Positions 1,426-53,954 of a stretch of 64,000 nucleotides of DNA are shown piece after piece. The stretch covers positions 192,001 to 256,000 of the forward strand of contig CAVYSY010000030.1 of assembly GCA_963771175.1 (NCBI GenBank), written 5' to 3'. Numbering within the stretch: position 1 is the stretch's first letter; each line of letters begins with the position of its first letter. The DNA comes from an uncultured delta proteobacterium (GTDB lineage Bacteria; Myxococcota; Myxococcia; Myxococcales; Myxococcaceae). The translations under genes were made by a program, and so were the position numbers. The notes under the pieces are model-generated. The model ran no database searches and was not told where the DNA came from. It worked only from the letters and a program-made list of their open reading frames with translations.

Positions 1426-2827
<1,402 letters not shown>

Positions 2828-13037: not shown

Positions 13038-13181
13038 GATAGTTCCCGTGAAAATGAAGCGCTCGGGGTGATTATCGCACGCCTGCCACCCTGAGTTGCT
13101 TATCCCCCCATATTTCGTACCTGTCCGGCTGGCAGCCCCTCCTGCGAGCGCTCGGATGGCCTTCCGTCACGGGGGAAGGGA

Positions 13182-14249
13182 ATGGGAACGCACTCCGTTG
13201 ACGTGGCGATGGAAGGACCTCCCTCCTCTTCTTCGGCGTCTTCTTCGAGCGATGCTGCCCTTTCTGGCGATGTCAAAACCCTGCGCAATGCACTGGCTGT
13301 TCCAGTGATGGAGTGGGTGGACTGGAGCAACGCTCTCGAGCGGGCGGCCAGCTGGTTGGATGACCTCCACTGGCAGATCGCCAAGGGCGGGAGCCTGCAT
13401 CAGGGGTTGGAGTCCATGTTCAAGGGCCTGGCCCTGCTGCACCGCAAATGGGACCGGGAGGAGTGGACCCGCTTCTGCCTGGAGATCGTCCGCAACCACC
13501 CGCTGCGTGCGCTCATCCACCAGTGTCCCTACACGCGGCACGGCTTCGAGAAGCCCCGGGGCTACGCGGGTGACGCGGTGCTCATCGACTACCTCTACAA
13601 CGAGCGTCAGACGGATGGGACGACGCAGCTCGGGCGGGACATCTACCACTTCCTGTGGCGCCAGTCCGGGCCCCGGAGCGTGCGCGAGCGGCGGGAATTG
13701 CTGGTCCGGGAGCTGGACTCCGTCGCCGAGCGCGTGAAGCAGCCCCGCGTGCTCTCCGTGGCCTGCGGACACCTGCGCGAGGCCGAGCACTCCCGCGCCG
13801 TGGCCGAGGGCCGCATCGGCCAGCTCCTCGCGTTCGATCAGGACCCGGTGAGCCTGGAGGTGGTGACCCAGCAGCACCCGGGGAATGTGGTGCGGCCCGT
13901 CCGTGGCTCGGTCCGCTCCATCCTCCTGGGCAAGGCCACGTTCCCGGACCAGGACTTCATCTACTCGGCGGGTCTGTACGACTACCTCTCCGAGTCCGTG
14001 GCCGCGCGCCTCACCCGGCTCCTGTTCGGCATGCTCCGCCCCGGTGGGCGCCTGCTGGTGGGCAACTTCGCCGTCCGCACCCCCGATGCCGGTTTCCTCG
14101 AGGCCTTCATGGACTGGTGGCTCATCTATCGCGATGAGAACCAGGTGCGTGCCTTCGCCTCGGAGATCGACCCGGCGCAGCTCGCCTCGGTGGACATGTT
14201 CCGCGACAGCGCGCAGAACGTCATCTACATGGTGCTGACCCGCCGCTAG
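13182..14249 (+). CDS. Class I SAM-dependent methyltransferase, PhcB (3-OH fatty acid methyl ester synthase)-like
   Basis: KPRGYAGDA.LIDY.Y, RVLSVACGHLRE, DFIYSAGLYDYL, L.PGG.L.VGNF, MDWWLIYR motifs. Confidence 0.8.
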   Translation: MGTHSVDVAMEGPPSSSSASSSSDAALSGDVKTLRNALAVPVMEWVDWSNALERAASWLDDLHWQIAKGGSLHQGLESMFKGLALLHRKWDREEWTRFCLEIVRNHPLRALIHQCPYTRHGFEKPRGYAGDAVLIDYLYNERQTDGTTQLGRDIYHFLWRQSGPRSVRERRELLVRELDSVAERVKQPRVLSVACGHLREAEHSRAVAEGRIGQLLAFDQDPVSLEVVTQQHPGNVVRPVRGSVRSILLGKATFPDQDFIYSAGLYDYLSESVAARLTRLLFGMLRPGGRLLVGNFAVRTPDAGFLEAFMDWWLIYRDENQVRAFASEIDPAQLASVDMFRDSAQNVIYMVLTRR

Positions 14250-14279
14250 AAGCGGCGGCCCCTTCGGTGGGGTCCTCCC

Positions 14280-17200
14280 TCAGTGGGCGCCGTTGCCGCC
14301 CTGGGGCTCCTCGGGGCCGCGGCGGGGCAGGGTGACGGTGAAGGTGGCACCCTGTCCCGGCGCGCTCTCCACCTCGATGGTGCCGCCGAGCGCCTGGACA
14401 ATCTCCCGGACAATCCACAGCCCGATGCCGAAGCCACCGTAGTGGCGCACGGAGACGGCGCGCTCGAAGCGCTCGAAGATGCGCGTGGCGTCCTCCTCGG
14501 CGATGCCGATGCCCTCGTCGCGCACCCTCAGCCGCGCCTGGGTCTCGTCGCCTTCCACGGTGACTTCGATGGGCCGGCCCGCCCCGTACTTCGCCGCATT
14601 GGTGAGCAGGTTGACCACCACCTGCTCCAGCCGCATGGCGTCCCAATGGCCCACCAGGGAGGGGGGCAGGTTCAGCCGCAGCGGGCACTCGGCTCGCACC
14701 AGCCCCTCGCGCGAGCGCTCCACCACCCCGCGCACCACCTGCACCAGGTCCACGTTCTCGAGATGACCCAGGAGCTGCCCCTGGGCGATGCGCGAGATGT
14801 CCAGCAGCTCGTTCACCAACCTCCCCAGGCGCTGCGTCTGGAGGTTGGCCGACTCCAGCTTGGCGCCGAGCCGCTCCGGGGGCAGCCGCTCCAGGCCCTG
14901 GCGCACCTGGGACATGAGGCCCTGGATGTGGAGCTGGAGCGAGGTGAGGGGCGTCTTCAGCTCGTGCGCGGCGATGGAGAGGAAGTCGTCCCGGCGCCGC
15001 ACGGCCTCCTGCTCCTCGCGGTAGAGCCGGCCCTGCTCCTCGGAGAGGGCCTCCATGCGCTCGAAGCCCTCGGCGTTCTCCAGCGCGGCGCCGGCGAGGA
15101 TGCAGACGAAGGAGGCCAGACGCTCCTCGTCCTCGCCGAAGAGCTCGCCCACCTGCCGATGGCTGACGCACACGCAGGCCACCGTCTTGCCGCGCACCTG
15201 GATGGGGGCGCACAGCAGCGAGCGCACCCCGAGCAGCTCCATGCTCTCGCTCACCCCGCCGGGCATGCCCTGGCCCATCACCGTCGGGCGTCCCGTCTCC
15301 AGGGCCCGGCCGATGGCGGTGTGGCCCACGCCGGCCGCCGCCAGCTCGTCCTCGGGCAGCAGCGTCTCCGGGTCGAACACCACGCAGTGCTCCGCGCGCA
15401 GCATCTCCATCATGGACAGGCGCGCGGCGTCGAACACCGCCTGGCGGGAGAGGGCCGAGGCGATGCGGCGGCCCGCGTCCAGCACCCGGGGGAAGCGGTC
15501 CACCAGCGACAGGGTGCCCGGGCGCTCCGGCTGCTCCGCGCTCTCTCCAGGCTCGATGTCCAGGTCCTGCTCCATCTCCTGGAGCTCGCGGGAGGCCTCC
15601 TCCGTCCAGGCGGGGGCCTCGGGCCAGCCGACCTCCTTGCCCACGCGCCCGAGCGTCTGGAGCGTCTGGGCGCGCTCGTAGCGCATCTTCAGCTCCCCGG
15701 CGACGTCCAGGCTCTCCTCCAGCCAGCGGCGGGCGCGGCGCGGGTGGCCGGCCAGGGCGGCCAGCAGCCCCCGCTCGCGCAGCACGTGGGCGAGGTTGTT
15801 GCGGTAGCTGCGCGCCAGCTTGTAGGCCCGCCGCGCCACCTTCTCGGCCCGCTTCAGCGACTCCGCGCGCAGGCCCGGGGCGAGCGGGGAGCTGTTCTCG
15901 GCCCGCATGCGCAGCGCCGTCAGCAGCCAGGGCACGATGGGGGCCACGTACTCGTGTCGCAGGTGGGCCTGCTCCACCAGAGTGTCCGCCTTCTCCAGCA
16001 GGGACACCGCGCCCGCGGAGTCCCCCTCGTGCAGCAGGCGGAGCGCCTCGGCCAGCAGGAGGTTGGCGTGCGTCTGCGTGTCCTGGCCGGGGTTGGCCAG
16101 CGAGCCCTCCAGCAGGCTGTATGGGATGCGGCCCCGGGCCGCCTTGGACCAGACCTCCAGGGCCAGGCGCACCGCGTACCCGTCGCCGATGGCCAGCGCC
16201 GCCGCGTGCAGCCGCCGCGCGGACTCCAGCGCCTCCTTCAGCCGGCCCAGCCGGTAGTGGGCCAGGGCGTACTGGTAGTGGGCGTTGTTGACCTCCCACT
16301 GGTCTCCCGTGCGCTGCAGCAGCCGCACCGCCTCGCGGCACTTCTCGATGGACTCCTCGAAGCGGCCCGCGGCGTAGAGGCCCAGCCCGTAGAAGTGGAG
16401 CGACTGGCCCTGGCCCCAGACGTCCCCCAGCTCCCGGCGGATGGCGAGCGACTTCTCCGCGTAGGCGGTGGCCCGGCTGAACCAGGGCACCATGGTGAGC
16501 ATCGGGGCATGCTCCGAATAGGCCTGGGCGAGCTCGAGGGTGGGCGGATAGCGCTCGGCCGTGTTCACCTCGCGCAGGTGGGTCCAGAAGGTGGCGATGG
16601 GACTGCCGAAGTACCAGCTGTTGTAGGTCAGCCGGCTGTAGAAGTGCACCGCGAGCAGGTCCTCCTCGCTGTGCTCGAGCGAGCGCCGCCCCATCAGCAC
16701 GTGGGGCATCAGCGTGTGTCCGGCCTGCACCCCCAGCTCCCAGAAGGCCCCCCAGCGCGAACGCCGCGGAGGTGCGGGGCACCCACCGCCCCAGCAGCGT
16801 CAGCCCCCGCTTCAGGGCCACGTCCGCCTCTTCCTTCTTGTAGAGCTTGAAGGCCAGCTCGCCGAGCTTCAACCAGATGCGGGCCTGCTCCAGCCTGTCT
16901 CGCGCCAGCGATTGGGCCAGCTCGAGCTGCTGCTGGGCGGCATCGTAGCGCCCGCGCAGCATCAGCACGTCCCCGAGCCCGGCGGCGACGCGGAAGCGCG
17001 TGCTGGCCTCGGCCCGGTCCGCGCCCCGCTCGGCGATGCGGTAGTTGAACTCCGCCGTCTCCAGGGCGAACTGCTGCCGGGAGCGCTCGGCGGCCATCAG
17101 GGCATGGGGGAGGGCCTGGGCATACTCGCCCGCCGCATCGAAGTGGTAGGCCAGCTCGAAAGGGTCCGCCGGGGGATGGGCGGCGATGCTGCGAGCCGCC

Positions 17201-19266
17201 AGCCGGTGCAGCTCCCGGCGCTCCTCGGGTCGCAGCAGCCCCAGCAGGGCCTCGCGCAGCTTGTCGTGGACGAAGGTGTAGCGGCCGCCGGAGCCCTCCC
17301 ACAGCATGTGTCGCCGCCGGGGCTCCATCAGCGCGGCGGCCACCTGCTCCCGCGGCGTCCCCGAGAGGGCCGCCACCCGCTCCAGGTCGAAGTTCTTGCC
17401 CAGCACCGCGCCCACGGACAGCAGGCGCAGCGCCTCGGGCGGCAGCAGCTTGAGCCGGCGCGACCAGGAAGGAGGCCGCCTGGCGCGAGGAGCGCACGTG
17501 GGCCATGGCCTCCGGCTCCACCTGCCACCCCGCGGGCCTGGCACCAGCGCGCCGTCCTCCACCAGGCCGTGCAGCACCGCCGAGGCCATGAAGGGATTGC
17601 CCTCGGACAGGCGCGACACCAGCTCGGTGGCCTCGCGCGGCAGGTTGCCGGCCATGGACTCCAGCATCCGCGCCACCTCGGTGGTGCCGAAGGCCGCCAG
17701 GCGCAGGTGGGCGTCCGGGTTGAGCCGGCGCAGGACGTGCGCGGGCCCCACCTCCTCGGTGCGGAAGGACACGACGATGAGCACGTGCCCCGCCGAGTCG
17801 CGGTGCGCCTGCCGCCAGTTCTCCAGCGCCCGGAGCGTCAGCTCGTCGGCCCACTGGCAGTCCTCGAGCAGCACCACCGCCGGCTCGGACTCCGTGCCCA
17901 GCGCGCCCAGCAGCGTGGTGAGGGCGAGGATGCCGCGCGTCTCACCCAGGGACTCGGGGCCCAGGCCCTGCTGCTGCGCCGGGCGCAGCACCGACTGCAA
18001 CTGGGGCAGCACCGTGCACACCGCCGCCGCCTGGTCCACCAGCCGCTCGCGCAGCAGCTCCGCCAGTGAGGGCCGCTCCCGGGCCTCCGTGGCGATGCCC
18101 GAGGCCACGTCCACGACGAGCTGGAAGGGCCGCTGCGCGGACTGGGCCAGGGCCTGGCCCTGCAGCACCCAGGCGCGGTGTTGGCGGGCGCGCGTGGCGA
18201 ACTCCTCCAGCAGCCGGCTCTTGCCGCCGCCGCTCTCGGCCTCCACCACCAGCAGCCGTCCCGGCTCGACGCGCGAGCGCTCCAGCTCGCGCTCCAGCAG
18301 CGCCAGCTCCTCGTGGCGTCCCACGAAGGAGGGCTCGGTGAGGCTGTGGCGCATGTCATGCGCGCCCGCCACCAACTCCGGGTCCTGCTCGCCGCGGGCC
18401 AGGGCCTTCTCAATCGCCTGCAGGTCCTCGCGCGCGGACTGGGCGGACTGGTAGCGGTCCTGCGGGTCCGTCTGTAACAGGCGCGCGACGACCTCCTCCA
18501 GCGCGCGGGGCACCTCCACGCCGGTGCTGCGCAGCCGGGGCCGGGTGGTGAGGTGCTGGCGGAGCACCTCGCCCACGGAGGCGCCGTCGAAGGCCGGGTG
18601 GCCGGCGAGCGTCTCGAAGAGGACGGCCCCCACCGCGTACAGGTCCGAGGTGGCCTCCACCGGACGGTTGAGGAGCCCGGCCTGCTCGGGCGAGAGGTAG
18701 CGCGCGGTGCCCACCGGCAGGTCGCGCAGCGTCGGGTCCAACCGCTCACTGCGCGCCAGACCGAAGTCCACCAGACTGGCGCGGACGACGGTGGGGCGGC
18801 CCTCGACGATGATGTTGGAGGGCTTGATGTCGCGGTGGAGGATGCCGTGGGCGTGGGCCTCGGCCAGGGCGGCCAGGACGCACTGGCCCACGGTGAGCGC
18901 CTCCTCCACGGAGAGGGTGCCACTGGTGAGCCGCTCCTGGAGCGACACCCCGGGGGTGAAGGGTGTCACCAAGAAGACCAGGTCGCCCCCGGCGCCGAAG
19001 TGGAGCACCGGCACCAGGTAGGGGCTGTGCATCGAGCGCAGGACATTCGCCTCGTGTTCCAGACGCTGTCGCGCGTTGGGCACCAGCGAGACGGCGGAGG
19101 TCGTCTTGATGACGAGCCGACCCCCGGTATGCAGGTCCACCCCGAGCCACGTGGTGATGCCACGGCCCTGCTTGATGCGCTGGGTGAGTTCGAAGCGGTT
19201 GCCCAGTCGCCTGCCTGGGTGCACCCCTTCCAGAGAGGGTCCCGCCTGTTCGTAGCCCTCCGCCAT
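14280..19266 (-). CDS. Hybrid Ser/Thr kinase - AAA ATPase - TPR - GAF - histidine kinase; frameshifts near 17540/17465 (compensating) and ~16750
   Basis: HRDIKPSN, DFGLA, GTARYLSPE; FVGRHEEL...AESGGGKSRL; LEDCQWAD; GNPF; FVHDKLRE; GAF SLLCAPI; AAHELKTPL, NLLTNAAKY, DEGIGI, GFGIGL. Confidence 0.9.
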
Positions 19267-19497
19267 CAATGCCCTCCCCCTCTGGTCGCACCACCGGGTG
19301 GTGGGGTCGGCGCGTCATCGAGAAGCTTGGGACCGCGACGTGCGGTGCCAAGGGGGACGACCTGGCTACATGCGCCGACGGCGTGCGCCAGTGGGTAGGG
19401 TGCTTCAAATGGGGAGGCACGGGGGCGCGCGCATCCCCTCAGGCACGGATACCGGCCCTCGGTGCTCAGCCCGGAGGACAGGCGAGCGGGCGGGCCC

Positions 19498-21347: not shown

Positions 21348-24248
21348 CTACTTGTACTCCACCGTCAGGACGGCGCCGGTGCCCTCGGTGAGGAAGACGT
21401 AAGAGGTGCCGGCCTGGTTCTGCGTGAACTGGAGCCGGGCCTGCGTCTTGCCCACCTTGTTGATGGCGGTGAGCCCCGCGGCGTTGAAGTCGGTCGAGCT
21501 CTGGGTGCCGGTGGTGAACTTGATGAGGTTGGCCACCCCGCTCGCGGTGGCGGCCGCGGACCAGTCGGTGGTCTCGGTGGCGGCCGTGCCGAACGTGCCG
21601 TTCTTCAGGTCGAGGGAGAGGAGGTTGCCGGCGGGGTCGGCCCACGGGTCGGCCGACGAGGAGGACAGCGTCACCTTGAGCGAGGCCCGGACGATGGTGG
21701 CGGTGTCCGGGAGCGAGGAGGTGTCGAACGAGAAGAGAGTCCGGTTGTACCTGGCATCCGTGCCCTTGCCGACGGCCAGACTGGTCAGGGTCCCCACCGC
21801 CGGCGAGCTGCCGTCCACGTTCGCCTTCACGTACCCGTCATCCGCCGCGATGCTGTTGAACGAGACGGTCGTCGTCGTCCCCGCGGTGCCGTTGCTCACC
21901 GTGACCGTGGTGTCGTTGTCCGTGCCCACGTTGTTCGCCGCGTCATAGGCCTTGGCCAGCAGCGAGTGGCTGCCGTTGGCCACGCCCGCCGTGTTCCAGG
22001 TGAAGACGTAGGGGGCCGCGGTGACGGTGTCGGCCAGCACGCCGTCGATGTAGAACTCGACCTTCTTCACGCCGGCCGCATCCGAGGCGCTCGCCGTCAC
22101 GTCGAGGGTGCCGCTGACGGTGGCGCCGTTGGCCGGGGCGGTCACATTCACGGTGGGCGCCGTGGTGTCGGCGGAGGCGCTCGGCGGGCCGACGGAGATG
22201 CTGTCCACCCAGGCCTTCGCGCGGCTGAGGTTCGAGCCGGTGTCCGTCGCCGTGACGATGAACTTCAGGATGACGGTGCGGTTGGCGTACGCCGAGAGGT
22301 CGATGTCCGCGCGCTGCGTCCAGTTGGCCTCGGTGACAGTGCCGATGCCGCTCTTGGTCACCGAGTCCACGACGTTGTCGGTGCCGTTGTTGACGATGAC
22401 CTTGAAGCTCGCCGAGGCCGAGGTGTTGGCGCCGGAGAGGTCCAGCTTCCGCCAGTAGGTCAGCCGGGGGTTGGCCGTCAGCGTCACGCTGACGCTCGCG
22501 GTGCGGGTGACGGTGTTGAAGGCCGGCGTGGCTGCCCCGAGGATGGACTTGCTCCCGGACATGCCGGTCTGGTCACTGGCGTCCAGCGCCCACTCGGTGA
22601 GGCTCCAGCCCGCGGTGTCGGGGCCGTTGGTGGAGAAGCGCTCGGTGAAGCGCACCGAGTTCTGGTCCACCGTCACCGACACAAAGGTGGAGGCCGCCGT
22701 GTTGCCCGCGGCGTCGTAGGCCTTCGCCTGGACGGTGTGGACGCCCATGGCATACGAGGTGGTGTTCCAGTTGTACACGTACGGCCCGGCCTGCTGCGAC
22801 GACACGCCCTGGCCCACCACGACGCCGTCGACGAGGAACTCCACCTTCGTCACGCCGAAGTCATCCGAGGCGGTGGCGGCGATGTCGATGGCGCCGGCCA
22901 CGGTGGCGCCGGCGGTGGGGAAGGTGATGGCCACGCTGGGCGCCGTGGTGTCGGAGATACCGCCGGAGACAGTGACGGAGATGGTGCTGGAGGTCGCGGT
23001 GTTGCCCGCGGCGTCATGGGCCTTGGCCACCAGGGTGTGGGGGCCGTTGGTCGCCGCCGCGGTGTTCCAGCTGTACTCGAAGGGCGAGGCCGTGTCGGTG
23101 CCGACCAGGGTGTTGTCGATGGAGAACTCGACCTTGGAGATGCCGACGTCGTCCGTGGCGCTGGCCGTCACCTTCACCGTCCCGCTCACGCTGGCGCCGT
23201 TGGCGGGCGCGGAGAGGCTCACGGTGGGCGCGACCGTGTCGGAGTTGTCGAGTCCGAAGAACTTCGCCACGTACCAGGTGGAGCAGATGTCCGTGTCGAG
23301 CACGAAGGAGCCCGCCGTGCCACACGCGACGGTGGTGCCGGGGAACTTGAACGCCGGGTCGATGGCCGTGCCGTGCCCCATGCCAGTGAGGGCGTAGGTC
23401 TCCACCAGCGCGTTGCCCGCGGTGTCCTTGTAGACCTTGTGGGGGTAGCCGGCGACCGTCTCGCTGACGTCCGCCGTCTGGTCGATGCCGTGCACCGCCG
23501 TCCACTGTTCCATGGCCTCCGTCTGGTTGGTGTTCTTCACGGTGTAGTCGGACGTGCCGTGCCAGATGGAGATTTTCGGGTAGGGGCCGGTGTAGCTGGC
23601 GTAGGCATTGCGGACCAGGTCCCTCCACTGCGTGGGCGTCTTGTCCGCACCCGGGCTCATGCAGGAGAAGCCATCGTTCATCGTGGTCGCGCACTTGTAC
23701 GGGACGCCCGCCATCACGGCGGCCCCGGCGAAGACGTCGGGGTAGGCGGCGGCCATCACGTGCGTCATCGCGCCACCCGCGGACAGGCCGGTGACGAAGA
23801 CGCGGCGCGGGTCGATGGAGTGGTCGACCATCATCTTGTCGACCATCTGCTTGATGGAGAGCGCCTCGCCCTGCCCACGCGCGATGTCACCCGGCTCGAA
23901 CCAGTTGAAGCAGGTGTTCTGGTTGTTGGCGCTGAGCTGCTCCGGGTAGACCACGTAGAACTTGAGCTGTTCGGCCAGCGCGTTCCAGCCGGTGAGGGTG
24001 TAGCCGTCAGGGGTTTGGACACATCCGTGCAGCGCCACCACCAGCGGGGCGTTGGCGGGCATGCTGGCGGGGACGTGCTTCCACATCTTCAGGTTGCCGG
24101 GGTTGGTCCCGAAGCTCGTCACCTGCGTCAGCGAGCCGTACAGCTCCCCCAAGGGGGGTGGGGTCTCCTCCGGCGGTAGCTGCTCGCACCCGAGTACGGT
24201 CAGGGCGAGAACCGCACCCACGACTCCTGCGAAACGTCGATTCAGCAT
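21348..24248 (-). CDS. Extracellular PHB depolymerase family esterase (type I catalytic domain), lipoprotein with Ig-like (Big) domains
   Basis: FGTNPGNLKM, ALHGC, CFNWF, VTGLSAGGAM, WHGTSDYTV, GMGHG; lipobox VLGC; three DT.AP.V....P..GA.V.G Ig-like repeats. Confidence 0.9.
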   Translation of the reverse strand: MLNRRFAGVVGAVLALTVLGCEQLPPEETPPPLGELYGSLTQVTSFGTNPGNLKMWKHVPASMPANAPLVVALHGCVQTPDGYTLTGWNALAEQLKFYVVYPEQLSANNQNTCFNWFEPGDIARGQGEALSIKQMVDKMMVDHSIDPRRVFVTGLSAGGAMTHVMAAAYPDVFAGAAVMAGVPYKCATTMNDGFSCMSPGADKTPTQWRDLVRNAYASYTGPYPKISIWHGTSDYTVKNTNQTEAMEQWTAVHGIDQTADVSETVAGYPHKVYKDTAGNALVETYALTGMGHGTAIDPAFKFPGTTVACGTAGSFVLDTDICSTWYVAKFFGLDNSDTVAPTVSLSAPANGASVSGTVKVTASATDDVGISKVEFSIDNTLVGTDTASPFEYSWNTAAATNGPHTLVAKAHDAAGNTATSSTISVTVSGGISDTTAPSVAITFPTAGATVAGAIDIAATASDDFGVTKVEFLVDGVVVGQGVSSQQAGPYVYNWNTTSYAMGVHTVQAKAYDAAGNTAASTFVSVTVDQNSVRFTERFSTNGPDTAGWSLTEWALDASDQTGMSGSKSILGAATPAFNTVTRTASVSVTLTANPRLTYWRKLDLSGANTSASASFKVIVNNGTDNVVDSVTKSGIGTVTEANWTQRADIDLSAYANRTVILKFIVTATDTGSNLSRAKAWVDSISVGPPSASADTTAPTVNVTAPANGATVSGTLDVTASASDAAGVKKVEFYIDGVLADTVTAAPYVFTWNTAGVANGSHSLLAKAYDAANNVGTDNDTTVTVSNGTAGTTTTVSFNSIAADDGYVKANVDGSSPAVGTLTSLAVGKGTDARYNRTLFSFDTSSLPDTATIVRASLKVTLSSSSADPWADPAGNLLSLDLKNGTFGTAATETTDWSAAATASGVANLIKFTTGTQSSTDFNAAGLTAINKVGKTQARLQFTQNQAGTSYVFLTEGTGAVLTVEYK

Positions 24249-24344
24249 GTGTGCTCCCGGGAAAGTGGGGCTAATGCCTTACCATGTTCCAATGAGTTTT
24301 TATTATGTGTTCTGTTCCAGGGAATGACCCGGAGGGCGCCGCGC

Positions 24345-24386
24345 CATGACGCGCAATGTCATGTGTTTCATGACGCGCAATGTCAT
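24345..24386. promoter_or_regulatory. Two direct copies (24-bp period) of palindromic ATGAC-N7-GTCAT; candidate TF operators
   Basis: catgacgcgcaatgtcat at 24345-24362 and 24369-24386, in an AT-rich divergent intergenic region. Confidence 0.65.
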
Positions 24387-24403
24387 ACGTGCGAGTCACG
24401 CAG

Positions 24404-24456
24404 ACATGAACCCATCTTCATATAAACATGAATCTAACATCATATAAACATGAATC
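24404..24456. promoter_or_regulatory. Tandem TCAT-N6-ATGA(A) motifs, 22-bp period; candidate operators of a second TF
   Basis: tcatataaacatgaatc at 24418-24434 and 24440-24456; ACATGAA at 24404, 24426 and 24448. Confidence 0.6.
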
Positions 24457-24571
24457 CGGCTTCAGGTGCGCTAGGATGGCGCCGCCGCCAACGAGGCCGG
24501 CTTTGGGAGGGGGCCTCCCGACACGTACGGACCCGGCACCTCTCATCTCCCTACTCCACAGGAGTCCACAC

Positions 24572-26017
24572 ATGAGGATGTCCAAGCACTCCCTCCGGTT
24601 CTACGCGACCGGACTCGCCACCTGCGCCCTGCTCGCGTGCGACAAGCCGGAGAAGCCGGATGACACCGGGACCGGCCAACAGGACGTGGTGACGGTGGAG
24701 AGCTGCCGCAAGCAGCTCGCCGCTCGCCAGGATGAGCTGCGCGCCGAGGGAGTGGACGTGGCCAACTGGTCCTTCCGGGATGCGCCCCAGATGGTGGAGC
24801 CGGCGCTCACCGAGCGGCAGACGCCCCAGACCTACAAGGAGTACGACGGCAAGTACCGCCCGCTGAGCAACCACCCCGGCTGCTCCGTGGACAACCTCTA
24901 CTACGACAAGGCGAACACCCGGACGGATACCGGTCGCACGCCCTTCGTCGACGGCAACAATGACGGCAAGTGGACCGGGCGCTCCGACTTCGGTGGCCCC
25001 AACGCCGCCACGGGCTTCGTCGATGGGGACAAGGCCAACATCCCCGGCTACCCCTGCGCCGCCAAGCAGTACACGCCGAACGCCGAGGACACCTCCAAGC
25101 CCATCGTCATCCTCGTGCACGGCAACTCCACCCGGCCGCACACCTGGGAGAAGTTCCTCCTGCCGGCGGGCACGCCCATCAACGCCGCCGTCGAGAAGGT
25201 CCAGTTCAACCCGGACACGGAGGCCCGGGCCCAGCTCGCCGAGCGCCTCGTCGCCGATCATTTCAACGTCATCGCCGTGGACTTCCGCACGGACCTGATC
25301 GCCACGGTGGACCCCACCGCCAACAACACCACGGAGAACGCGGCCGGCAACATCGACCACGGCTGGTCCACGCCCATCCTCCAGTCGCTCGTCAAGGCGG
25401 TGATGAAGAACAACCCCGGCCGCAAGGTGGCGCTGGTGGGCCACTCGCTGGGCGTGACGGTGGTGCGTGACGCCATCCGCCGGCTGTACGTGGAGCACGT
25501 CGACGGGGTGGAGGGCGCCATCAACCCCTTCCCGCAGCTCAGCCACGTCATCCTCGGCTCGGGCGCCAACCACGGCGTGTCCACCTATGACCCGCCGAGC
25601 GCGCTGTGCGGCACCAACCCGACCATGCGCGGCACGATCGTCTGCGAGATGGGCAGCCGCGCCAACTACCAGCCGACGTACTTCCACAAGCCGCTCAACG
25701 GCCCGAAGGACCTGTTCGCCACCCCGTGCGCGGACGGTGACTACGCCTTCGGCAAGACGGGCCAGTGCAACGGCAACGTGGTGAAGTACTTCACCATCAC
25801 CATGACGGACATCGAGCAGGGCGCCAACTACCAGGACTTCTACGTGTCCGAGGCGGCCTCGCGCATCGACATGCCGGGGTGCGTGGTGAACAAGCTGACG
25901 ACGCTCAACGACTACGACACCAGTGGCTATTTCCTCAAGGGCTTCATCGCCAACCACTTCGGCTCCCTGCGCTCCGACGCGGGCCTGCGGCTCGCCATGG
26001 AGTATCTGGCGCGCTAG
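24572..26017 (+). CDS. Lipoprotein alpha/beta hydrolase (Lipase_2/PhaZ7-like)
   Basis: AGGAG RBS; lipobox LLAC; PIVILVHGNS oxyanion motif; ALVGHSLG nucleophile; GSGANHG; C-terminal ANHFG His. Confidence 0.8.
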   Translation: MRMSKHSLRFYATGLATCALLACDKPEKPDDTGTGQQDVVTVESCRKQLAARQDELRAEGVDVANWSFRDAPQMVEPALTERQTPQTYKEYDGKYRPLSNHPGCSVDNLYYDKANTRTDTGRTPFVDGNNDGKWTGRSDFGGPNAATGFVDGDKANIPGYPCAAKQYTPNAEDTSKPIVILVHGNSTRPHTWEKFLLPAGTPINAAVEKVQFNPDTEARAQLAERLVADHFNVIAVDFRTDLIATVDPTANNTTENAAGNIDHGWSTPILQSLVKAVMKNNPGRKVALVGHSLGVTVVRDAIRRLYVEHVDGVEGAINPFPQLSHVILGSGANHGVSTYDPPSALCGTNPTMRGTIVCEMGSRANYQPTYFHKPLNGPKDLFATPCADGDYAFGKTGQCNGNVVKYFTITMTDIEQGANYQDFYVSEAASRIDMPGCVVNKLTTLNDYDTSGYFLKGFIANHFGSLRSDAGLRLAMEYLAR

Positions 26018-26041
26018 TCGTCGGCCCCTGGCAGTCTCCTT

Positions 26042-26080
26042 CCGCCGCCCGCGCTCGTGGCTGCCGCGCGCGGGCGGCGG
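26042..26080 (+). other. Strong intercistronic hairpin (13-bp GC stem, no U-tract)
   Basis: ccgccgcccgcgc (26042-26054) pairs with gcgcgggcggcgg (26068-26080). Confidence 0.55.
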
Positions 26081-26120
26081 TCTCCCCTTAGCGAAGTGCA
26101 GCCGAAGAGAGTCTTCCTCC

Positions 26121-27512
26121 ATGAATCCGAAGTTCCCCGCCGCGTCCCGCCTGACGCTCGCGTGCACGCTGGCGTCCGCCCTGGTGGCGGCCCCGGCCCT
26201 GGCGCAGACCTCCGACGCCCCGGTCGCGCCCACCCCCGAGGCCGCGCCCCAGGCCGCTCCCGCCGCGGCTCCCGAGAAGCCCGATGCCGAGAGCAAGCAG
26301 GACCCGGAGGCGCTGGTGGTGAGCGCGCCGGCGCCCGAGAGCAAGCCCGTCTTCGGCGTCGGCAGCGAGCGGTACTTCATCAACCCGGTCATCGCCATCG
26401 CGGGCGGCATCCAGTCGGAGAACCTGCTGGTCAACCCCAACCCGCAGAAGGAGGGCCGCATCACCACGGTGGCCCTCGCGCGCTTCGGGTTCGAGGGGCG
26501 CCTGGGGCAGTACGTCACCTTCCGCAGCGAGTTCGAGCGCAACATCCGCAGCCACGGCTCGGGCATCTGGGAGGGCACGGCCTCCATGTCCGTGCGCGAC
26601 CAGGTGCTGCGCCTGCAGCGCTGGGGCGCCACGGTGGAGGCCGGCATCATCCTGGACCCGGCCAGCGTGGACTACTTCTCCGCGCACATCGGCGACGTGC
26701 TCCTGGCGGACAAGTACACGAGAGATCCGCTGCTCTACTCCGGCTTCAACCGCGGCCAGGGCGTGCAGGCGCGCTACTCGCGCTGGGGCCTCACCGCCGG
26801 CCTGAGCTACACCGAGGCCAACCCGCTGAGCTCCTCGGCCTCCTTCATGGTGGGCGGCTCCTTCGGCGGCAACAGCCGCTTCTGGGAGCGGCCCCTGGGC
26901 AACTTCCGCAACGGCCAGCCGGATGACGACATCCACTTCCGCGTCATCAGCCCCTCGCTCGGCTACGAGCACCCCTGGTTCGAGGCCAAGGCGATGGTGC
27001 AGGTCTTCAACATCAACTACCAGGCCAACTCCATCGAGGATCCGCCGATTCAGGGCTACAACGCCCGCGGCAACGTGAAGCTCAAGCTCAAGGGCATGGT
27101 GCCGGCGCTGCCCTTCGCGGTGGAGCCCTTCTTCAACGTCGCGCGCGTGCAGAACGACGTGGTGAACTCGGCCTCGGGCTACGGCAACCAGCTCCTGGAC
27201 ACGCGCTTCGACGCGCTCACCCTCTCCGGCGGTCTGGACGTCTTCCTCTCTGGCAAGTCGGGCGTGGGCTTCAACTTCGTGCGCGTGGCGGACCACACGC
27301 CTTCCTTCGTTCCCCCCACGGGCTCCACGGCCGCCAGCGAGCCCGTCCTCTCCACGAACATCACCTACCTCAACGTGGGCGCGACCTGGTGGATGTTCGA
27401 CCAGGTGGCGCTCGGCGCGCGCGTGGCCACCTTCTCGAAGAAGATCGAAGGCAAGCCCGAGCTCGAGGAGCGCGACCTGTCCGGCTTCCTCACGCTGCGG
27501 ATGATCCTCTAA
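26121..27512 (+). CDS. Putative outer-membrane beta-barrel porin
   Basis: Signal peptide ending ALA-Q, Pro/Ala-rich linker, many amphipathic beta strands, C-terminal SGFLTLRMIL; its stop overlaps the next start (TAATG). Confidence 0.7.
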   Translation: MNPKFPAASRLTLACTLASALVAAPALAQTSDAPVAPTPEAAPQAAPAAAPEKPDAESKQDPEALVVSAPAPESKPVFGVGSERYFINPVIAIAGGIQSENLLVNPNPQKEGRITTVALARFGFEGRLGQYVTFRSEFERNIRSHGSGIWEGTASMSVRDQVLRLQRWGATVEAGIILDPASVDYFSAHIGDVLLADKYTRDPLLYSGFNRGQGVQARYSRWGLTAGLSYTEANPLSSSASFMVGGSFGGNSRFWERPLGNFRNGQPDDDIHFRVISPSLGYEHPWFEAKAMVQVFNINYQANSIEDPPIQGYNARGNVKLKLKGMVPALPFAVEPFFNVARVQNDVVNSASGYGNQLLDTRFDALTLSGGLDVFLSGKSGVGFNFVRVADHTPSFVPPTGSTAASEPVLSTNITYLNVGATWWMFDQVALGARVATFSKKIEGKPELEERDLSGFLTLRMIL

Positions 27513-28294
27513 TGAGCACGCCCATGGGAGAGCTGACGGGAAAGTGCGCGCTCGTCACGGGCGCGGCGAGCGGCATCGGCCGGGCGGTGGCGGAGGACCT
27601 GGGCGCGAGGGGCGCCCGGGTGCTCGTGTCGGACCTGGACGAGGCGGGCGCGCGAGCGGTGGCCGAGGGCATTCCGGGCGCCATCGCCCAGCGGGCGGAC
27701 GTGTCCTCGCGTGAGGACTGCCGGGCGCTGGTGGACCGGGCCCAGAAGGAGTGGGATCGGCTGGACATCCTGGTGAACAACGCCGGGCTGCAGCACGTGG
27801 CCCCGGTGGAGGAGTTCCCCGAGGACCGCTGGGAGCAGATGATCCGCATCATGCTGGTGGGGCCCTTCCTGCTCACCAGGTATGCCCTGCCGCTGATGTA
27901 CGCCCGGAAGTGGGGGCGCATCATCAACGTCTCCTCGCTGCACGGGCTGGTCGCGTCGCCGTACAAGTCGGCCTACATCTCGGCGAAGCACGGGCTGATG
28001 GGGCTGACGAAGACGGTGGCGCTGGAGGCGGCGGACAAGGGCGTGACGGTGAACGCCATCTGCCCCAGCTACGTGCGCACGCCGCTGGTGGAGAAGCAGA
28101 TCGCCGACCAGGCCCGGGTGAACGGGCTGTCCGAGCAGGAGGTCGTCGAGCGCATCATGCTGGCCCCAGCGGCGGTGAAGCGCCTGCTGGAGCCGAGCGA
28201 GGTGGCGGCCTACGTGTCCTTCCTGTGCTCGGAGGCCGCGGGCGGCATCACCGGGGCCGCCCAGGTGATGGACTGCGGCTGGACGGCCCGCTGA
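27512..28294 (+). CDS. bdhA: D-3-hydroxybutyrate dehydrogenase (SDR)
   Basis: TGAASGIG, NNAGLQHVAPVEEFP, SSLHGLVASPYKSAYISAKHG, CPSYVRTPLVEKQI: signature of 3HB dehydrogenases. Confidence 0.92.
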   Translation: MSTPMGELTGKCALVTGAASGIGRAVAEDLGARGARVLVSDLDEAGARAVAEGIPGAIAQRADVSSREDCRALVDRAQKEWDRLDILVNNAGLQHVAPVEEFPEDRWEQMIRIMLVGPFLLTRYALPLMYARKWGRIINVSSLHGLVASPYKSAYISAKHGLMGLTKTVALEAADKGVTVNAICPSYVRTPLVEKQIADQARVNGLSEQEVVERIMLAPAAVKRLLEPSEVAAYVSFLCSEAAGGITGAAQVMDCGWTAR

Positions 28295-28303
28295 GTCGAG
28301 CCG

Positions 28304-29673
28304 TCAGGCCACTTCGCGCTTCTTGTCGGTCCCCGCGGCGCCGTCCGCGGGGGCCGTGGGGGCCGCCTCGGAGAGGTTCCCGCGGAACGTCTCGGCGGAG
28401 AGGTAGACGGAGACGAGGGTGACGAGCGCGAGGCCCACCATGTAGAGCGACACGGGCCACGCCTTGCCGCCGGACTCCGTCAGCAGCCAGGTGGCGATGA
28501 GGGGCGACAGCCCGCCGGCGAACACGGAGGCGAGCTGGTAGCCCAGCGACGCGCCGCTGTAGCGCACGCGGGTGCCGAAGAGCTCGGAGAAGAAGCTGGC
28601 CTGCGGCCCGTACATGGCGGCGTGGGCGATGATGCCGAGCGTGATGGACAGCAGGATGAGGCCCGTCGCCTTCGTGTCGATGAGCCAGAAGAAGGGGAAG
28701 GCCAGCAGCGCGCACCCCAGGGCGCCGCCGAGGTAGACGGGCCGGCGGCCGAAGCGATCCGAGGCGGCTCCAAAGGCGGGGATGGCCACCAGGTGGACGA
28801 CGGTGGCTCCGAGCACGCAGTTGAGCATGGTGGAGCGCTCCATCCCGAGCCGCTCGGTGCCGTAGGTGAGCACGAAGGTGGTGACGATGTAGAAGAAGCC
28901 GTTCTCGGCGAAGCGCGCCCCCATGGCGAGGAGGATCTGCTTGGGGTAGGTGCGCAGCACCTCGAGCGATGGGCAGCTTCGGGCCGGAGCCGGGGGCCTT
29001 GTGGGCGGCGCGGAAGGCGGGGGACTCGGCGACGCTCAGGCGGATGAAGACGCCGATGCCGATGAGCACGGCGCTGAAGCAGGAAGGGCACGCGCCAGCC
29101 CCAGGAGAGGAACTGCTCCTCGGGCAGGCGGGAGAAGATGGAGAACACGCCAGTTGGCCACCAGCAGGCCCGCGGGAGCGCCGATCTGCGGCCAGCTCCC
29201 GTAGAAGCCGCGCCGGTGCGCGGGGGCGTGCTCCACGGCCATGAGCACCGCGCCGCCCCACTCGCCGCCCAGGCCGAAGCCCTGCAGGACGCGCAGCAGC
29301 ACCAGCAGCACGGGGGCCCAGACGCCGATCTGCTCGTAGGTGGGCAGCAGGCCGATGGCGAAGGTGGCCGCGCCCATGATCATCAGCGTGGCGCACAGCA
29401 TGGACTTGCGGCCGATCTTGTCGCCGAAGTGGCCGAAGACGATGCCGCCGAGCGGCCGGGCGACGAAGCCCACGGCGAAGGTGGCGAACGCGGCGAGCGT
29501 GCCGACCAGCGGGTCGAAGGACGGGAAGAAGAGCGGTTGAAGACCAGCGCCGCCGCGGTGCCGTAGAGGAAGAAGTCGTACCACTCGATGGTCGTGCCGA
29601 TGAAGCTCGCGGCGGCCACCTTCCAGGTGGATTGGGACTTCTCGGGCGTCGGGGCCGCGTCAGGTGCCGTCAC
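28304..29673 (-). CDS. MFS transporter, metabolite:H+ symporter (MHS/ShiA-like); frameshifts near 29535, 29150, 29078 and 28965
   Basis: ASFIGTTIEWYDFFLYG, ARPLGGIVFGHFGDKIGRK, LRVLQGFGLGGEWGGA, WGWRVPF, SDRFGRR, ELF.TRVRYSGAS. Confidence 0.9.
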
Positions 29674-29721
29674 GTCGTGTTGCCTCGCGTGGTGGGGTGA
29701 AGGCGTCCTGAATAGCCGCTT

Positions 29722-29756
29722 CCCCCGCGAGAGGACAACAGGGGCTCTCGCGGGGG
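29722..29756 (-). other. Intercistronic hairpin (12-bp stem)
   Basis: cccccgcgagag (29722-29733) pairs with ctctcgcggggg (29745-29756). Confidence 0.45.
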
Positions 29757-29808
29757 CGCGAGACGGGCACCCCGCTAGCGGGGCGCCCGCTCCGTGTGAG
29801 GCTTTGAC

Positions 29809-30711
29809 TCAGTAGGCGTAGGTGGCCATGTCGGCACGCACCACGCCGACGATGTTCTCCCAGTTGCCGTTCTGGTAGTGGTCGTAGTTCTCGCCGTCGT
29901 CGCGGAAGTCCACCGTGTGGTAGGTCCACATGGCGCGCTCGCCGTTGCTGGTGCCGCTGGTGCCCGGTGTTGAGGGTGCCGTCGCAGAACCAGTCGCCGG
30001 GGTTGCAGAAGCTGCCGCCCGCGCTGCCGGAGACGCCGCCGGTGGAGTGGTAGGCCACGGCCTCGTCGTCCTGGCCCGGGAGGAGGCCGGAGTAGACCGT
30101 GCCCTTCGGCGCCGGCGAACATGTAGAACCACTTCGAGCGCGTGGTGTTGTGGTTGTACAGGGAGCGCGCCGTGGTGGTGACCAGGTCGCCGACGATGGG
30201 GTCGCTCGCCGCCCACTCGCCCGTGGTCGGCCAGCTCGCTGCCGCCGCCGGCGCCGCGAGGCCACGTCCACCCACTTGATGTTCCAGCCCGTCTGGGTGG
30301 TGCCGTCGGTGTTGCCGCACACGCCGCTGGAGTTGGGGGTGGCGTTCTTCTTGTAGCGCGCCGAGCCACCGTAGAGGCGACAGCGCGTAGCCGATCTGCA
30401 GGTTGCCCGCGCTGTGCACGGCGATGTAGCACCAGTTGTTGCCGGTGCAGTAGCAGTCGAGCGCGTTGCGGATGTAGCCGTTCTGCGCGCCGATGCGCTG
30501 CGAGCCGTTCCAGTTCACGGCCTTCTTGTTCACGCCGGCCGCGGCGGTGCTCGGGACCCCAGTTGGAGAAGTCGGCGTAGTTGCCGATCTGGGTGCCGCC
30601 GCCGTTCTTGCCGTGGATCCACAGCGAGTAGTTGGTGGCCGAGGCCTCTGGGGCGACGAGGAGGGCGGCAGCCGCGGCCGCGAGGGTTGCCATTCGGGTG
30701 AGGGTGTTCAT
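29809..30711 (-). CDS. Secreted putative alpha/beta Ser-hydrolase of unknown family; several frameshifts
   Basis: Signal ending ASA-T; stitched product contains LWIHGK, CYIAVHSAG, ASGAGGGSELAD, FAGAKG, GQDDEAVAYHS and a C-terminal YDHY. Confidence 0.65.
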   Translation of the reverse strand: MNTLTRMATLAAAAAALLVAPEASATNYSLWIHGKNGGGTQIGNYADFSNWGPEHRRGRREQEGRELERLAAHRRAERLHPQRARLLLHRQQLVLHRRAQRGQPADRLRAVASTVARRATRRTPPPTPAACAATPTAPPRRAGTSSGWTWPRGAGGGSELADHGRVGGERPHRRRPGHHHGALPVQPQHHALEVVLHVRRRRRARSTPASSRARTTRPWPTTPPAASPAARAAASATPATGSATAPSTPGTSGTSNGERAMWTYHTVDFRDDGENYDHYQNGNWENIVGVVRADMATYAY

Positions 30712-30844: not shown

Positions 30845-32142
30845 TCAGGCGTTGGGGGTGAGCTGACGCCCGAGCGCGCGCCCCAGCTCCGTGCGCGCGG
30901 TGGCCAGGTTGTACGTGGCCTGCACGCGCTGGACGGCCGCGTTGGTGGCGGAGAGCTGGGCATCGGACAGCTCGATGATGTTGCCCACGCCCGCGCGGTA
31001 GCGGCCCTCGGCCAGACGCAGCCGCTCGCGGGCGTTGACCAGCGCCTCCTCCGCGGCGGAGAGGCTCTCTCGCGCGGCCGTGACGGCGAGCTGCGCGCGC
31101 TCCACCTCCAGGCGCACCTGCTGGCGCAATGCGTCACGCTGGGCCTGGACGTTGTTCAGGTTGGCCTGCTGCTCGCGGACCTGGGCGCGGGTGAGCCCGC
31201 CCTGGAAGATTGGCCAGCTCAGCGCCACCTGCCCATTCACACCCCAGTCCAGGTTCGCCGGGTTCGGACCCGACTCCGTCGCCGACAGCGAGGCGGAGAG
31301 GCTCGGCCAGTAGTTGGCGCGCGTGGCGGAGAGCTGCTGCTCCTGGGCTCGCAACTGGTGCTCGCTCGCGGAGAGGTCCGGCCGGCCCTGGAAGGCGACG
31401 TCCACCAGCGTGTCGATGGACTGCTCCTCGCCCTCCATGCGGCCCACCACCTCCTCGCGGACGGTGTATTGGGTGGAGCCCTCCACGCCCATGGCCTGGT
31501 TGAGCTGGGCCCTGCTGGTGGCCGCGTTGTTCTGGGCCTGGATGAGCCGCACCTGGGCGTTGGCCACCTCCGTGCGCTGCTGCAGCAGATCAATCTCCGG
31601 CCGGGTGCCCACCTGCACCTGGGCCTGTACCTGCGCCAGGTGCGTCTTCTGGTTCTCCAGCGTCTCCTGGGCCACTTGCACCAGGGCTTGCTGGGCGAGG
31701 GCGTTGAAGTAGGCGCTCTGGACGTTGGCGAGCACGTTCAGCGACGTCTGGGTCTCGGTGGACCTCTGAGCCTGGGCGGACTGCTGGGCCGAGCGCCACC
31801 GGCCGGTGGTGCGGCCGAAGTCCCAGAGGAGCTGGCTGACCGAGGCGCCCACGTTGAGGCCCTCGCGGCTGATGAAGCCGGAGGGAGTCGTCGTGCCCAG
31901 GCCGCCGTCATTGTCGCTGAGGGAGCGCTGGTACGTGGCGCTGGCGCTCACCTGGGGCAGTAGCGAGGAGAAGTTCTGGTCCACGCGGGCGTTCGCCGCG
32001 GCGGTGTTGGCCTGGGCCTGGCGCAGTTGGGGCTGTCGCTCCGTGGCGGTGCGCAGGGCCTCGTCCAGGGTGAGGACGCGCTGCTGGGCCCACGCAGGGG
32101 TGGCGGCGAGCAGCAGGGCGAGAAGCGGGAAGAGCGTTCGCA

Positions 32143-32143
<1 letters not shown>
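30845..32143 (-). CDS. TolC family outer-membrane efflux protein
   Basis: MRTLFPLL signal; LTLDEAL, LLPQVS, LWDFGR, WPIFQGG, RYRAGVG..IELSDAQ. Confidence 0.93.
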
Positions 32144-34119
<1,976 letters not shown>

Positions 34120-34137
34120 GTCGTGCCCCTCCCCCAC

Positions 34138-35485
34138 CTAGAAGGGCCCCGGAGGACGGAACCCACCACTGGACCTCGCGCCACCCGTGTCCCTGGCCGG
34201 AGCTGGCACCCTGCGGAAGCTTTGCATCCGAGGCCAGGGCGGTGATGACCCGGTCCCCCTCGCGCAGCTCTCCCTCCACCTCCGTGTACGAGCCGTCCGT
34301 GACCCCGGGCTTCACGCGCACGGGCGTGGGCCGCCCCTCGCGCAGGACGAACACCGTCCTGGTGCCGGGCTCGGACTTCCCGGGTGCGCCCACGCCGCCC
34401 ACGCCGGGACCCGCGCTGCCCGTACCCTCGGGAGGCTGGGGCGGGCGGAAGCGCAGCGCCGCGTTGGGCACGGTGAGCACGTTCTCCTTGTGCGCGGAGA
34501 TGAAGGTGACGTTGGCCGTCATGCCCGGCTTGAGCTTCAGCTCCGGGTTCGCCACGTCGATGACGGCGTCGTAGGTGACGACGTTCTGCACCGTCTGGGC
34601 CGCGTTGCGGATCTGCCGGACGACGCCCTCGAAGCTCTCGCCGGGACAGGCATCCACGGTGAAGGTGGCGTGCATGCCGTCCTCCAGCCGGCCCACGTCG
34701 GACTCGGCGACGCTGGTGTTCACCTGCATCTTGCGCAGGTCCTCGGCGATGGTGAACAGGGTGGGCGCCTGCAGCGAGGCCGCCACCGTCTGGCCCACGT
34801 CCACGCTGCGCGAGATGACGATGCCGTCGGTGGGCGAGACGATGGTGGCGTAGCGCAGGTTCACGTTCGCCTCGTTGAGCGCCGCCTGGGTCTGCGCCAG
34901 CGAGGCCTCGGCCGAGGTCACCTGGGTCTGGGCCGCCTGGGCGGTGGCCTCCGCGGTGTCCAGCTCCGCCTGGGAGATGAACTGCTGCGCGCGCAGGGAC
35001 CCGGAGCGCTCGGCCTGACGGCGGGCGTTGTCCGCCTCCACCCGCGCCCGCTGCACGTTGGCCTTCGCGGCCATCAGGTTGGCTCGGGCCCGCTCCAGCG
35101 CGGCCTGGAGGAGCTGCGGGTCGATGCGGGCAATCACCTGGCCCTTCTTCACCGGCGAGTTGTAGTCGACGAGGATCTCCTGGATGCGGCCGGACACCTG
35201 GCTGCCCACCTGCACCGTCACCAGCGCGGACACCGTCCCCGTCGCCGTCACGCGCGACTCGACGTCGCGCCGCTGCACCGCCGTCGTCTCGAAGCTGGCC
35301 GCCGAATCCTTCGTCTTGGGTCGGGCCAGCCACACGCCCGCGAGCACCACCGCGGCGAGGAGCAGCAACCCCAGCGGCCATCGCCTCGGCAGGTGCCAGC
35401 GCCGGGTTGGCGCCTCCGGCACGGGCGTGGGTCTGGTGGGGACGGATGGCTCCTCGCGTCGCGGCGACTCGGTCGTTGACCTCAT
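34138..35485 (-). CDS. MacA-like efflux periplasmic adaptor subunit; frameshift near 34190
   Basis: VQVGSQVSGRI, SPTDGIVI, GQTVAASLQAPTLF, KLKPGMTA; C-terminus ...GGFRPPGPF-stop lies in the shifted frame. Confidence 0.9.
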
Positions 35486-42283: not shown

Positions 42284-43259
<976 letters not shown>

Positions 43260-43263
<4 letters not shown>

Positions 43264-53944: not shown

Positions 53945-53954
53945 GGCCCGGGGC

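Follow-up and report, generated by a model that had tools for sequence, protein, structure and literature searches.

Here, we present an analysis of a six-gene locus in the genome of a myxobacterium of the genus Archangium (9.83 Mb in 58 contigs; completeness, 81.7%) that is a candidate for the use of poly(3-hydroxybutyrate) (PHB). The assignment to Archangium is based on the names carried by near-identical proteins and loci. The locus occupies positions 21348-30711 of a 64-kb window (G000:C30:192001-256000), i.e., the whole stretch of DNA that was analyzed, and its genes are named A to F (Table 1). An initial annotation had proposed that these genes form a complete system for harvesting PHB from prey, and all six were found where that annotation had placed them. 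A is divergent from B; B is followed by C and D on the forward strand, and E and F lie on the reverse strand. C and D are coupled by TAATG, as had been noted, with the stop codon TAA of C at 27510-27512 and the start codon ATG of D at 27512-27514. The proposal that three hydrolases are exported was borne out as far as it can be read from the N termini, which have two lipoboxes (A and B) and one AxA-type signal peptide (F). Likewise, a Pfam scan of the open reading frames (ORFs) of at least 130 aa agreed with the earlier statement that no phaC, phaA, phaB, or phasin gene is present in the window.

Table 1. Positions of the genes and other features in the window
Feature	Position(s)	Strand	Description or basis
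A	21348-24248	-	966-aa lipoprotein, type 1 short-chain-length polyhydroxyalkanoate (PHB) depolymerase catalytic domain
B	24572-26017	+	481-aa lipoprotein, alpha/beta hydrolase, Lipase_2 type
C	26121-27512	+	463-aa predicted outer membrane 16-strand porin
D	27512-28294	+	260-aa 3-hydroxybutyrate dehydrogenase (BdhA)
E	28304-29673	-	Metabolite:H+ symporter (MHS family, major facilitator superfamily), 5 frame segments in this assembly
F	29809-30711	-	Small secreted protein, putative serine hydrolase, 6 frame segments in this assembly
Single-base indels in E (4)	~28966, 29080, 29153, 29533		Alignment to relatives
Indels in F	~29953-29966, 30107, 30219, 30256, 30378, 30556		Alignment to relatives
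Operator-like repeats, two pairs, A/B divergent promoter	24347-24453	+	Motif search and genus alignment
Split FAD-linked oxidase	1363-2824		Six-frame scans
Split Ser/Thr kinase-AAA-GAF-histidine kinase	14224-19314		Six-frame scans
Split FAA hydrolase	42200-43670		Six-frame scans
Split DUF5996	53683-54950		Six-frame scans

Predicted functions of the encoded proteins

PHB depolymerases that act outside the cell are well-established enzymes, as is BdhA, and both families are represented at the locus. The earlier assignment of A as an esterase of the PHB depolymerase family holds: A scored 338.9 bits against NF050058, the model for the catalytic domain of extracellular type 1 short-chain-length polyhydroxyalkanoate (scl-PHA) depolymerases (cutoff, 150), and 271.4 bits against TIGR01840 (cutoff, 107.85). 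In Pfam, A matches Esterase_PHB (E value, 7.5e-25) together with three Big_7 (immunoglobulin [Ig]-like) domains. The catalytic domain spans residues 46-331; the C-terminal ~430 aa hold the third Big_7 domain, and the rest of this region is without a family match. In an alignment to PDB entry 8daj, an esterase of the PHB depolymerase family with a solved structure, the motifs LHGC, GLSAGG, HGTSD, and GMGH of A are conserved in that order. They correspond to the oxyanion His, the lipase-box Ser (G-L-S-x-G), the Asp, and the His, an order that is taken as defining type 1 depolymerases. A is therefore like the extracellular type 1 scl-PHA depolymerases (e-dPHAscl), with 8daj as a relative, in the models that its catalytic domain matches, in the aligned motifs, and in having an export signal. 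It differs from them in its three Ig-like domains and ~430-aa C-terminal region and in being a lipoprotein (lipobox LTVLGC, read from the sequence), which suggests that A is tethered rather than released.

B has the lipobox ALLAC and the nucleophile elbow GHSLG, and GGAG is located 7 nt 5' of its ATG. It passes the Pfam model Lipase_2 (PF01674) marginally (23.0 bits; gathering cutoff, 20.3), and its own Atlas cluster is 76% Lipase_2. A structure model of B (pLDDT 69, pTM 0.79) has a lipase/PhaZ7-like alpha/beta hydrolase fold, which matches PhaZ7 (PDB 2vtv and 4btv) with Z scores of 14.9-15.5 over 248-259 residues at 12-14% identity and Bacillus subtilis LipA with a root mean square deviation of 2.0-2.2 over 164-169 residues at 24-26% identity. 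B is predicted to share a LipA-like lipase core with PhaZ7 of Paucimonas lemoignei, a depolymerase of native amorphous PHB. Unlike PhaZ7, B is a lipoprotein, is ~140 aa longer, and is not linked to it by a sequence profile.

The assignment of C as an outer membrane beta-barrel porin is upheld by its predicted structure (pLDDT 70, pTM 0.71, 21 homologs), which has a 16-strand barrel, and the top Foldseek matches are all general or substrate-specific porins (PorB, BpsOmp38, VhChiP, OmpT, Omp32, and OmpF; E values, 9e-12 to 1e-8; TMt, 0.55-0.66). C has no match in Pfam (E value of ≤0.01), NCBIfam, or the PDB sequences, and the Pfam porin models Porin_1 and Porin_4 are not matched. Among the matches listed, a precomputed PF13609 domain is found on 3 of 120 C homologs, and the C family was found only in records labeled Myxococcota or unclassified delta/proteobacterial. 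The signal peptide of C ends with APALA/QT and is followed by a Pro/Ala-rich linker of ~55 aa (approximately residues 29-84), and the barrel starts at approximately residue 85. Between strands 5 and 6, the long loop 178-211 carries the invariant residues D197, R201, and D202; by analogy with other porins, this candidate constriction loop may set the selectivity of the channel. C is like the 16-strand general porins (VhChiP, Omp32, PorB, and OmpF) in its predicted barrel and in this candidate for a long internal loop, and like the chitoporin ChiP, it is encoded within a candidate polymer utilization locus. It is unlike the general porins in lacking a Pfam porin match and in having the N-terminal linker.

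D fits the description as BdhA, scoring 344.9 bits against TIGR01963 (cutoff, 307.05) and 332.3 bits against NF009093 (cutoff, 258). A third BdhA model, NF009931, gave 277.8 bits, which is under its cutoff of 340, and other models for short-chain dehydrogenases/reductases (SDRs) stayed under their cutoffs as well. That E encodes an MHS transporter is confirmed by an intact 455-aa ortholog (locus L002), which scored 456.2 bits against TIGR00883 (cutoff, 443.45; TC 2.A.1.6); owing to the frameshifts described below, only pieces of the E of the window match this model (210.0 and 137.9 bits). Because E adjoins bdhA in 20 of 29 Myxococcaceae loci, we infer that its substrate would be 3-hydroxybutyrate (3HB). 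Among 12 Archangium loci (L019-L030), E alone is inverted between genomes, being codirectional with bdhA in five, convergent in five, and absent in two. A search for inverted repeats flanking the invertible E yielded only short imperfect pairs, which are typical of GC-rich DNA, and no inversion mechanism was found.

F had been described as a secreted Ser-hydrolase. Its conserved motifs are compatible with this description, and matches to Pfam, NCBIfam, or PDB sequences are lacking. The relatives of F (~295 aa) form an unnamed family with 219 representative clusters at an E value of ≤0.001 and 1818 database proteins without annotation. In this family, G35, H100-S101-x-G103, and D214 are invariant and H220 and H273 near-invariant, making it plausible from the conserved residues that F is a serine hydrolase. 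Pfam gave no match on 24 of 24 family members except for one chance TNFR hit, F-family profiles found nothing significant among the PDB sequences, and the Atlas leads for F are PGAP1/DUF676/Lipase_2 at 0.91-0.92. A relationship of F to the B family was considered and rejected, as hhalign probabilities were 0.3% and 0.9% and only the nucleophile elbow was aligned. The inclusion of F in a PHB route is unsupported: F is adjacent to the other genes only in Archangium, and paralogs at ~85% DNA identity are located elsewhere in this genome (e.g., G000:C26:575558-576410) and in many genomes of the genus.

Conservation of the locus across Myxococcota

For the analysis of gene order, a C profile was searched against one genome per species (89 relatives), and the best 80 loci were kept and searched with the six proteins A to F. 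All 80 loci are from organisms named as Myxococcota-type or from unclassified delta/proteobacterial metagenome-assembled genomes (MAGs); 12 are from Archangium, 17 from other Myxococcaceae, and 51 are Polyangia-type (Polyangia, Kofleriaceae, and Sandaracinaceae). Over these loci, the genes are co-conserved well beyond Archangium, in agreement with the initial annotation, which had named a synteny search as a check.

Of the 67 loci with sufficient room (≥1.6 kb), 65 have B immediately 5' of C and in the same orientation; in the remaining two (L048 and L049), the two genes are separated by a PhaZ gene. Because the pair is kept in all testable loci, B-C, which the initial annotation had not set apart, is the evolutionary core of the locus, as judged from gene order. 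The genes that accompany this core differ between clades. All 12 Archangium loci and 16 of the 17 loci of other Myxococcaceae have an ortholog of bdhA (≥70% identity) next to C; orthologs of the MHS gene were found in 10 of the former 12 and in 10 of the latter 17. Type 1 PhaZ catalytic domains are encoded at 8 of the 12 Archangium loci, at none of the 17 loci of other Myxococcaceae, and at 32 of the 51 Polyangia-type loci. The Polyangia-type loci hold 50 PhaZ copies, with 1-4 per locus; in 12 loci, one starts <400 nt after C, and 14 loci also have a distant gene of the major facilitator superfamily (MFS). Gene neighborhood connects B-C with PHB metabolism twice and separately, through bdhA in one clade and through PhaZ-type genes in a second one.

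Order and orientation vary by clade, in that D flips, E flips, and A lies on either side. Loci from Myxococcus and Pyxidicoccus lack A; they have B-C-E and then bdhA, which lies on the other strand. One Myxococcus locus (L036) has B-C-MHS-bdhA between a nonribosomal peptide synthetase gene and an SBF transporter gene, and in a locus from Polyangiales (L049), MFS-PhaZ-PhaZ-B-PhaZ-C lies between unrelated kinase and Lar genes. Because order and orientation differ between clades, the clustering has been kept through rearrangements.

Reading frames of genes E and F

The route was described as complete in the initial annotation; however, E and F are not ORFs in this sequence. In a plot of third-position GC, E falls into 5 and F into 6 frame segments, and the pieces sit in different ORFs. 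Alignment to a 90%-identical relative and three further relatives revealed ten window-specific 1-nt indels at 28966-30556, nine of which are insertions outside homopolymers.

We consider it likely that these frameshifts are assembly errors, for several reasons. Codon-position bias is undisturbed within the segments of E and F, with a third-position GC of 0.9-1.0 in each of them. In substitutions, E diverges from the nearest relative by 5.3%, much as C (5.5%) and D (4.4%) do. The relatives keep both genes intact: E (~455 aa) and F (~295 aa) are whole in all seven relatives first compared, and a single full-length tblastn match was found for E in 10 and for F in 11 of the 12 Archangium loci, the remainder lacking the gene or being located where the contig ends. 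Other genes of the window are split across frames likewise, including macB, the FAA hydrolase, DUF5996 (three frames), the FAD-linked oxidase, the Ser/Thr kinase-AAA-GAF-histidine kinase, and others. Finally, the assembly is of limited completeness, and a second PhaC-like copy in it is frameshifted (see below).

Alternatively, E and F could be real pseudogenes in a decaying locus, with 3HB being imported via another transporter. The distribution of the indels makes real decay of E and F possible, since ten are located in the 1.6 kb of E-F compared with approximately four in the other ~17 kb of the 16-35 kb region and none in A-D (7 kb); moreover, the substitution divergence of F from the nearest relative is 10.1%, compared with 4.4-8.4% for A-E. 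We nevertheless regard this alternative as unlikely, because single-base insertions outside homopolymers, which account for 9 of the 10 indels, are untypical of natural indels, and because the intact codon-position bias, the divergence of E, the many other frameshifted genes in the window, and the intact E and F of all relatives examined speak against decay. Since the frameshifts are most likely assembly errors, the route is probably complete in this strain.

Signs of indel errors are seen along the entire window. The split genes were located by six-frame Pfam scans; a filter on third-position GC alone was unusable, as antisense frames score high too. Next to the locus, a 1546-aa ORF at 30845-35485 (reverse strand) that joins HlyD, MacB_PCD, and OEP is an artifact: the macB ABC ATPase (33376-34137) and FtsX (32146-33009) lie in other frames than this ORF, and what is located here is a macA-macB-tolC-like operon with frameshifts, through which the ORF runs.

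PHA synthesis genes elsewhere in the genome

The view that the organism does not itself produce PHA is unsupported at the level of the genome, where a class III PhaC-like gene is present, as it is in 11 of the 12 other genomes of the genus searched. The encoded protein has a GYCMGG box and scored 314.1 bits against TIGR01836, which is under the cutoff of 365.3; one genome of the genus has a full PhaC_N match. The genome-wide PhaC_N matches sit on contigs other than that of the window. Two near-identical PhaC-like copies were found, one at G000:C14:26693-28801, which continues into a second hydrolase-like region at the contig end, and one at G000:C26:291240-292583, which is frameshifted after ~125 aa. 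The presence of two such copies indicates that the assembly may hold redundant sequence. In one relative (G006), a TetR gene lies upstream of the PhaC-like ortholog.

Because a PhaC-like gene is present, the organism may be capable of PHA synthesis, judging from its gene content. This raises the alternative that the enzymes of the locus mobilize the organism's own PHA rather than products of extracellular PHB, and the near-universal presence of PhaC-like genes in the genus, with the full PhaC_N match in one genome, is what such a function would call for. However, A, B, and F carry putative N-terminal signals for export, C is a predicted outer membrane protein, and Phasin_2 was not found in any of the five genomes searched for it. 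A function in mobilizing internal PHA therefore seems highly improbable to us, as does a mere neighborhood of six genes without a shared function, which is at odds with co-conservation over 80 loci and through rearrangements.

A proposed route for the uptake of extracellular PHB products

What the analysis shows directly is to which families A, D, and E belong, what folds are predicted for B and C, and that the genes are co-conserved. Together, these findings point to a route for extracellular PHB, and we consider it probable that this is a Myxococcota-wide locus serving the uptake of extracellular PHB products. According to this model, A, lipid-anchored to the envelope on its Ig-like spacers, would cleave PHB to 3HB monomers and short oligomers, which would pass the outer membrane via C as a dedicated 16-strand porin. 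B might attack amorphous PHB at the surface or, as we consider slightly more likely, hydrolyze 3HB oligomers on the periplasmic side. E would then take 3HB over the inner membrane by proton symport, D would oxidize it to acetoacetate, and a two-subunit CoA transferase encoded elsewhere could activate the acetoacetate; a CoA_trans A and B subunit pair is encoded in all five genomes searched. Which substrates are involved, where in the cell A and B reside, and how the steps feed into one another are inferred from the findings above. The PHB could come from prey, dead soil cells, or other debris.

Several observations weigh against this model. Outside Archangium, no examined locus has both bdhA and type 1 PhaZ, and therefore the full six-gene picture is genus-specific. 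Even within Archangium, A is missing from 3 of the 12 loci with room for it (L021, L024, and L027), and 2 of 10 genus regions (L014 from G015 and L015 from G008) have D-E-F without A-B-C in 20 kb. Among the Polyangia-type loci, 19 of 51 are without PhaZ within the DNA compared. Because the loci are related to each other, the synteny counts are not independent events. In the case of acetoacetate activation, the best match to the acetoacetyl-CoA synthetase model TIGR01217 in five of five genomes is 300.8 bits versus a cutoff of 520.9, and the route would therefore rely on the CoA transferase. As to B, the Z score of 15.5 for PhaZ7 is tied within 1 unit with those for monoglyceride lipases, CALB, and B. 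subtilis LipA (14.7), and a B-family profile gave no significant match among the PDB sequences (best E value, 0.065) and did not find PhaZ7; therefore, the likeness of B to PhaZ7, seen in a structure model, is a lead only. As to A, classical extracellular PHB depolymerases also comprise a linker and a small domain for substrate binding. In A, no PHB substrate-binding domain was found in Pfam at an E value of ≤0.01, with only Ig-like domains after residue 331 and no dedicated model searched. In addition, feruloyl and acetylxylan esterases belong to the Esterase_PHB superfamily too, and in plain sequence comparisons, a feruloyl esterase (8iy8; E value, 1.9e-46) and an acetylxylan esterase (5x6s; 7.7e-39) match A almost as well as 8daj does (6.5e-48). 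In one genome with D-E-F alone (G015), bdhA and the MHS gene are also partly duplicated.

The matches of A to other esterases, and the Lipase_2-like sequence of B with a fold tied with mono-acylglycerol lipases and CALB, would also fit a locus for another exogenous ester or polyester, such as cutin, suberin, feruloylated plant material, or lipids. In that case, A would be a feruloyl or acetyl esterase, B a true lipase, and C a general porin, while D and E would act on another hydroxy acid. Part of a report on Myxococcus xanthus describes the secretion of lipases and a feruloyl esterase on suberin (PMC5158114), in line with such a function. Three findings argue for PHB instead: A scores more than twice the cutoff of the type 1 scl-PHA depolymerase model; D scores above the cutoffs of two models specific for BdhA but under those of other SDR models; and the B-C pair is independently joined to bdhA in one clade and to PhaZ-type genes in another. 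Thus, we think it rather improbable that the locus is dedicated to a different ester, and we favor the uptake of PHB products.

More tentatively, and with considerable doubt, we speculate that B and C are one dedicated module, possibly a physical complex with the hydrolase at the channel mouth, that defines a phylum-wide "polyester utilization locus" akin to a polysaccharide utilization locus. To this module, lineages would add surface PHB depolymerases (Polyangia and Archangium) or a 3HB importer and dehydrogenase (Myxococcaceae), allowing predators or scavengers to harvest the storage polyester of lysed bacteria. The arrangement recalls the polysaccharide utilization loci of Bacteroidota (SusC/SusD), in which surface lipoprotein enzymes, an outer membrane channel, an inner membrane importer, and a cytoplasmic enzyme are likewise encoded together; it differs from them in having a predicted 16-strand porin as the channel instead of a TonB-dependent transporter, in lacking a SusD-like protein, and in the proposed polyester substrate. 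Proteobacteria have 3HB catabolic loci in which bdhA lies beside a secondary transporter gene, as at the locus described here, and Bdellovibrio, a predator with an exported PHA depolymerase of the medium-chain-length type, uses prey PHA. Unlike these systems, the locus described here also encodes a dedicated porin and a lipoprotein that resembles lipases; the depolymerase genes are part of it in Archangium and Polyangia.

A literature search that left most subscription journals outside its reach yielded no account of a PHB locus in myxobacteria or of any PHB locus with a porin gene. A metagenomic survey lists PHA depolymerase genes of Myxococcota, including three type 1 genes in one Polyangiaceae MAG, and the accessible part of it contains no mention of a porin, PhaZ7, or predation (bioRxiv 10.1101/2020.05.08.085522). 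An organized locus with a hydrolase-porin pair kept across the phylum and joined to depolymerase genes or to a 3HB importer and dehydrogenase appears to be undescribed. If the proposed function is correct, the locus would supply the missing outer membrane step in the uptake of PHB products by Gram-negative degraders, the B-C pair could serve as a marker for polyester-degrading myxobacteria in soil and wastewater metagenomes, and it would become possible to test whether predatory myxobacteria obtain carbon from the storage granules of their prey. The predicted tethered type 1 depolymerase and the predicted Lipase_2-type lipoprotein are also new enzymes for work on bioplastic degradation.

Repeats in the A/B promoter region and neighboring genes

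The divergent promoter region between A and B contains two pairs of operator-like repeats. TGACGCGCAATGTCA is present twice, at 24347 and 24371, and C(A/T)TCATATAAACATGA twice, at 24416 and 24438. With at most one mismatch, TGACGCGCAATGTCA has three matches in the window versus 0.38 expected, and none of 100 shuffles reached three; the third match is located elsewhere, at 4917. For C(A/T)TCATATAAACATGA, there are two matches versus 0.00 expected. Both motifs are conserved in a 10-sequence genus alignment, and in 10 of 12 Archangium loci, both are found only upstream of B. No regulator gene is present within the locus.

Elsewhere in the window, the reverse strand encodes a protein of 820 aa that combines six LysM repeats with a chitinase-like domain of GH19 (10707-13166) and a trypsin-like peptidase (5035-6780). 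Based on their domains, these two proteins may be lytic enzymes of a predator.

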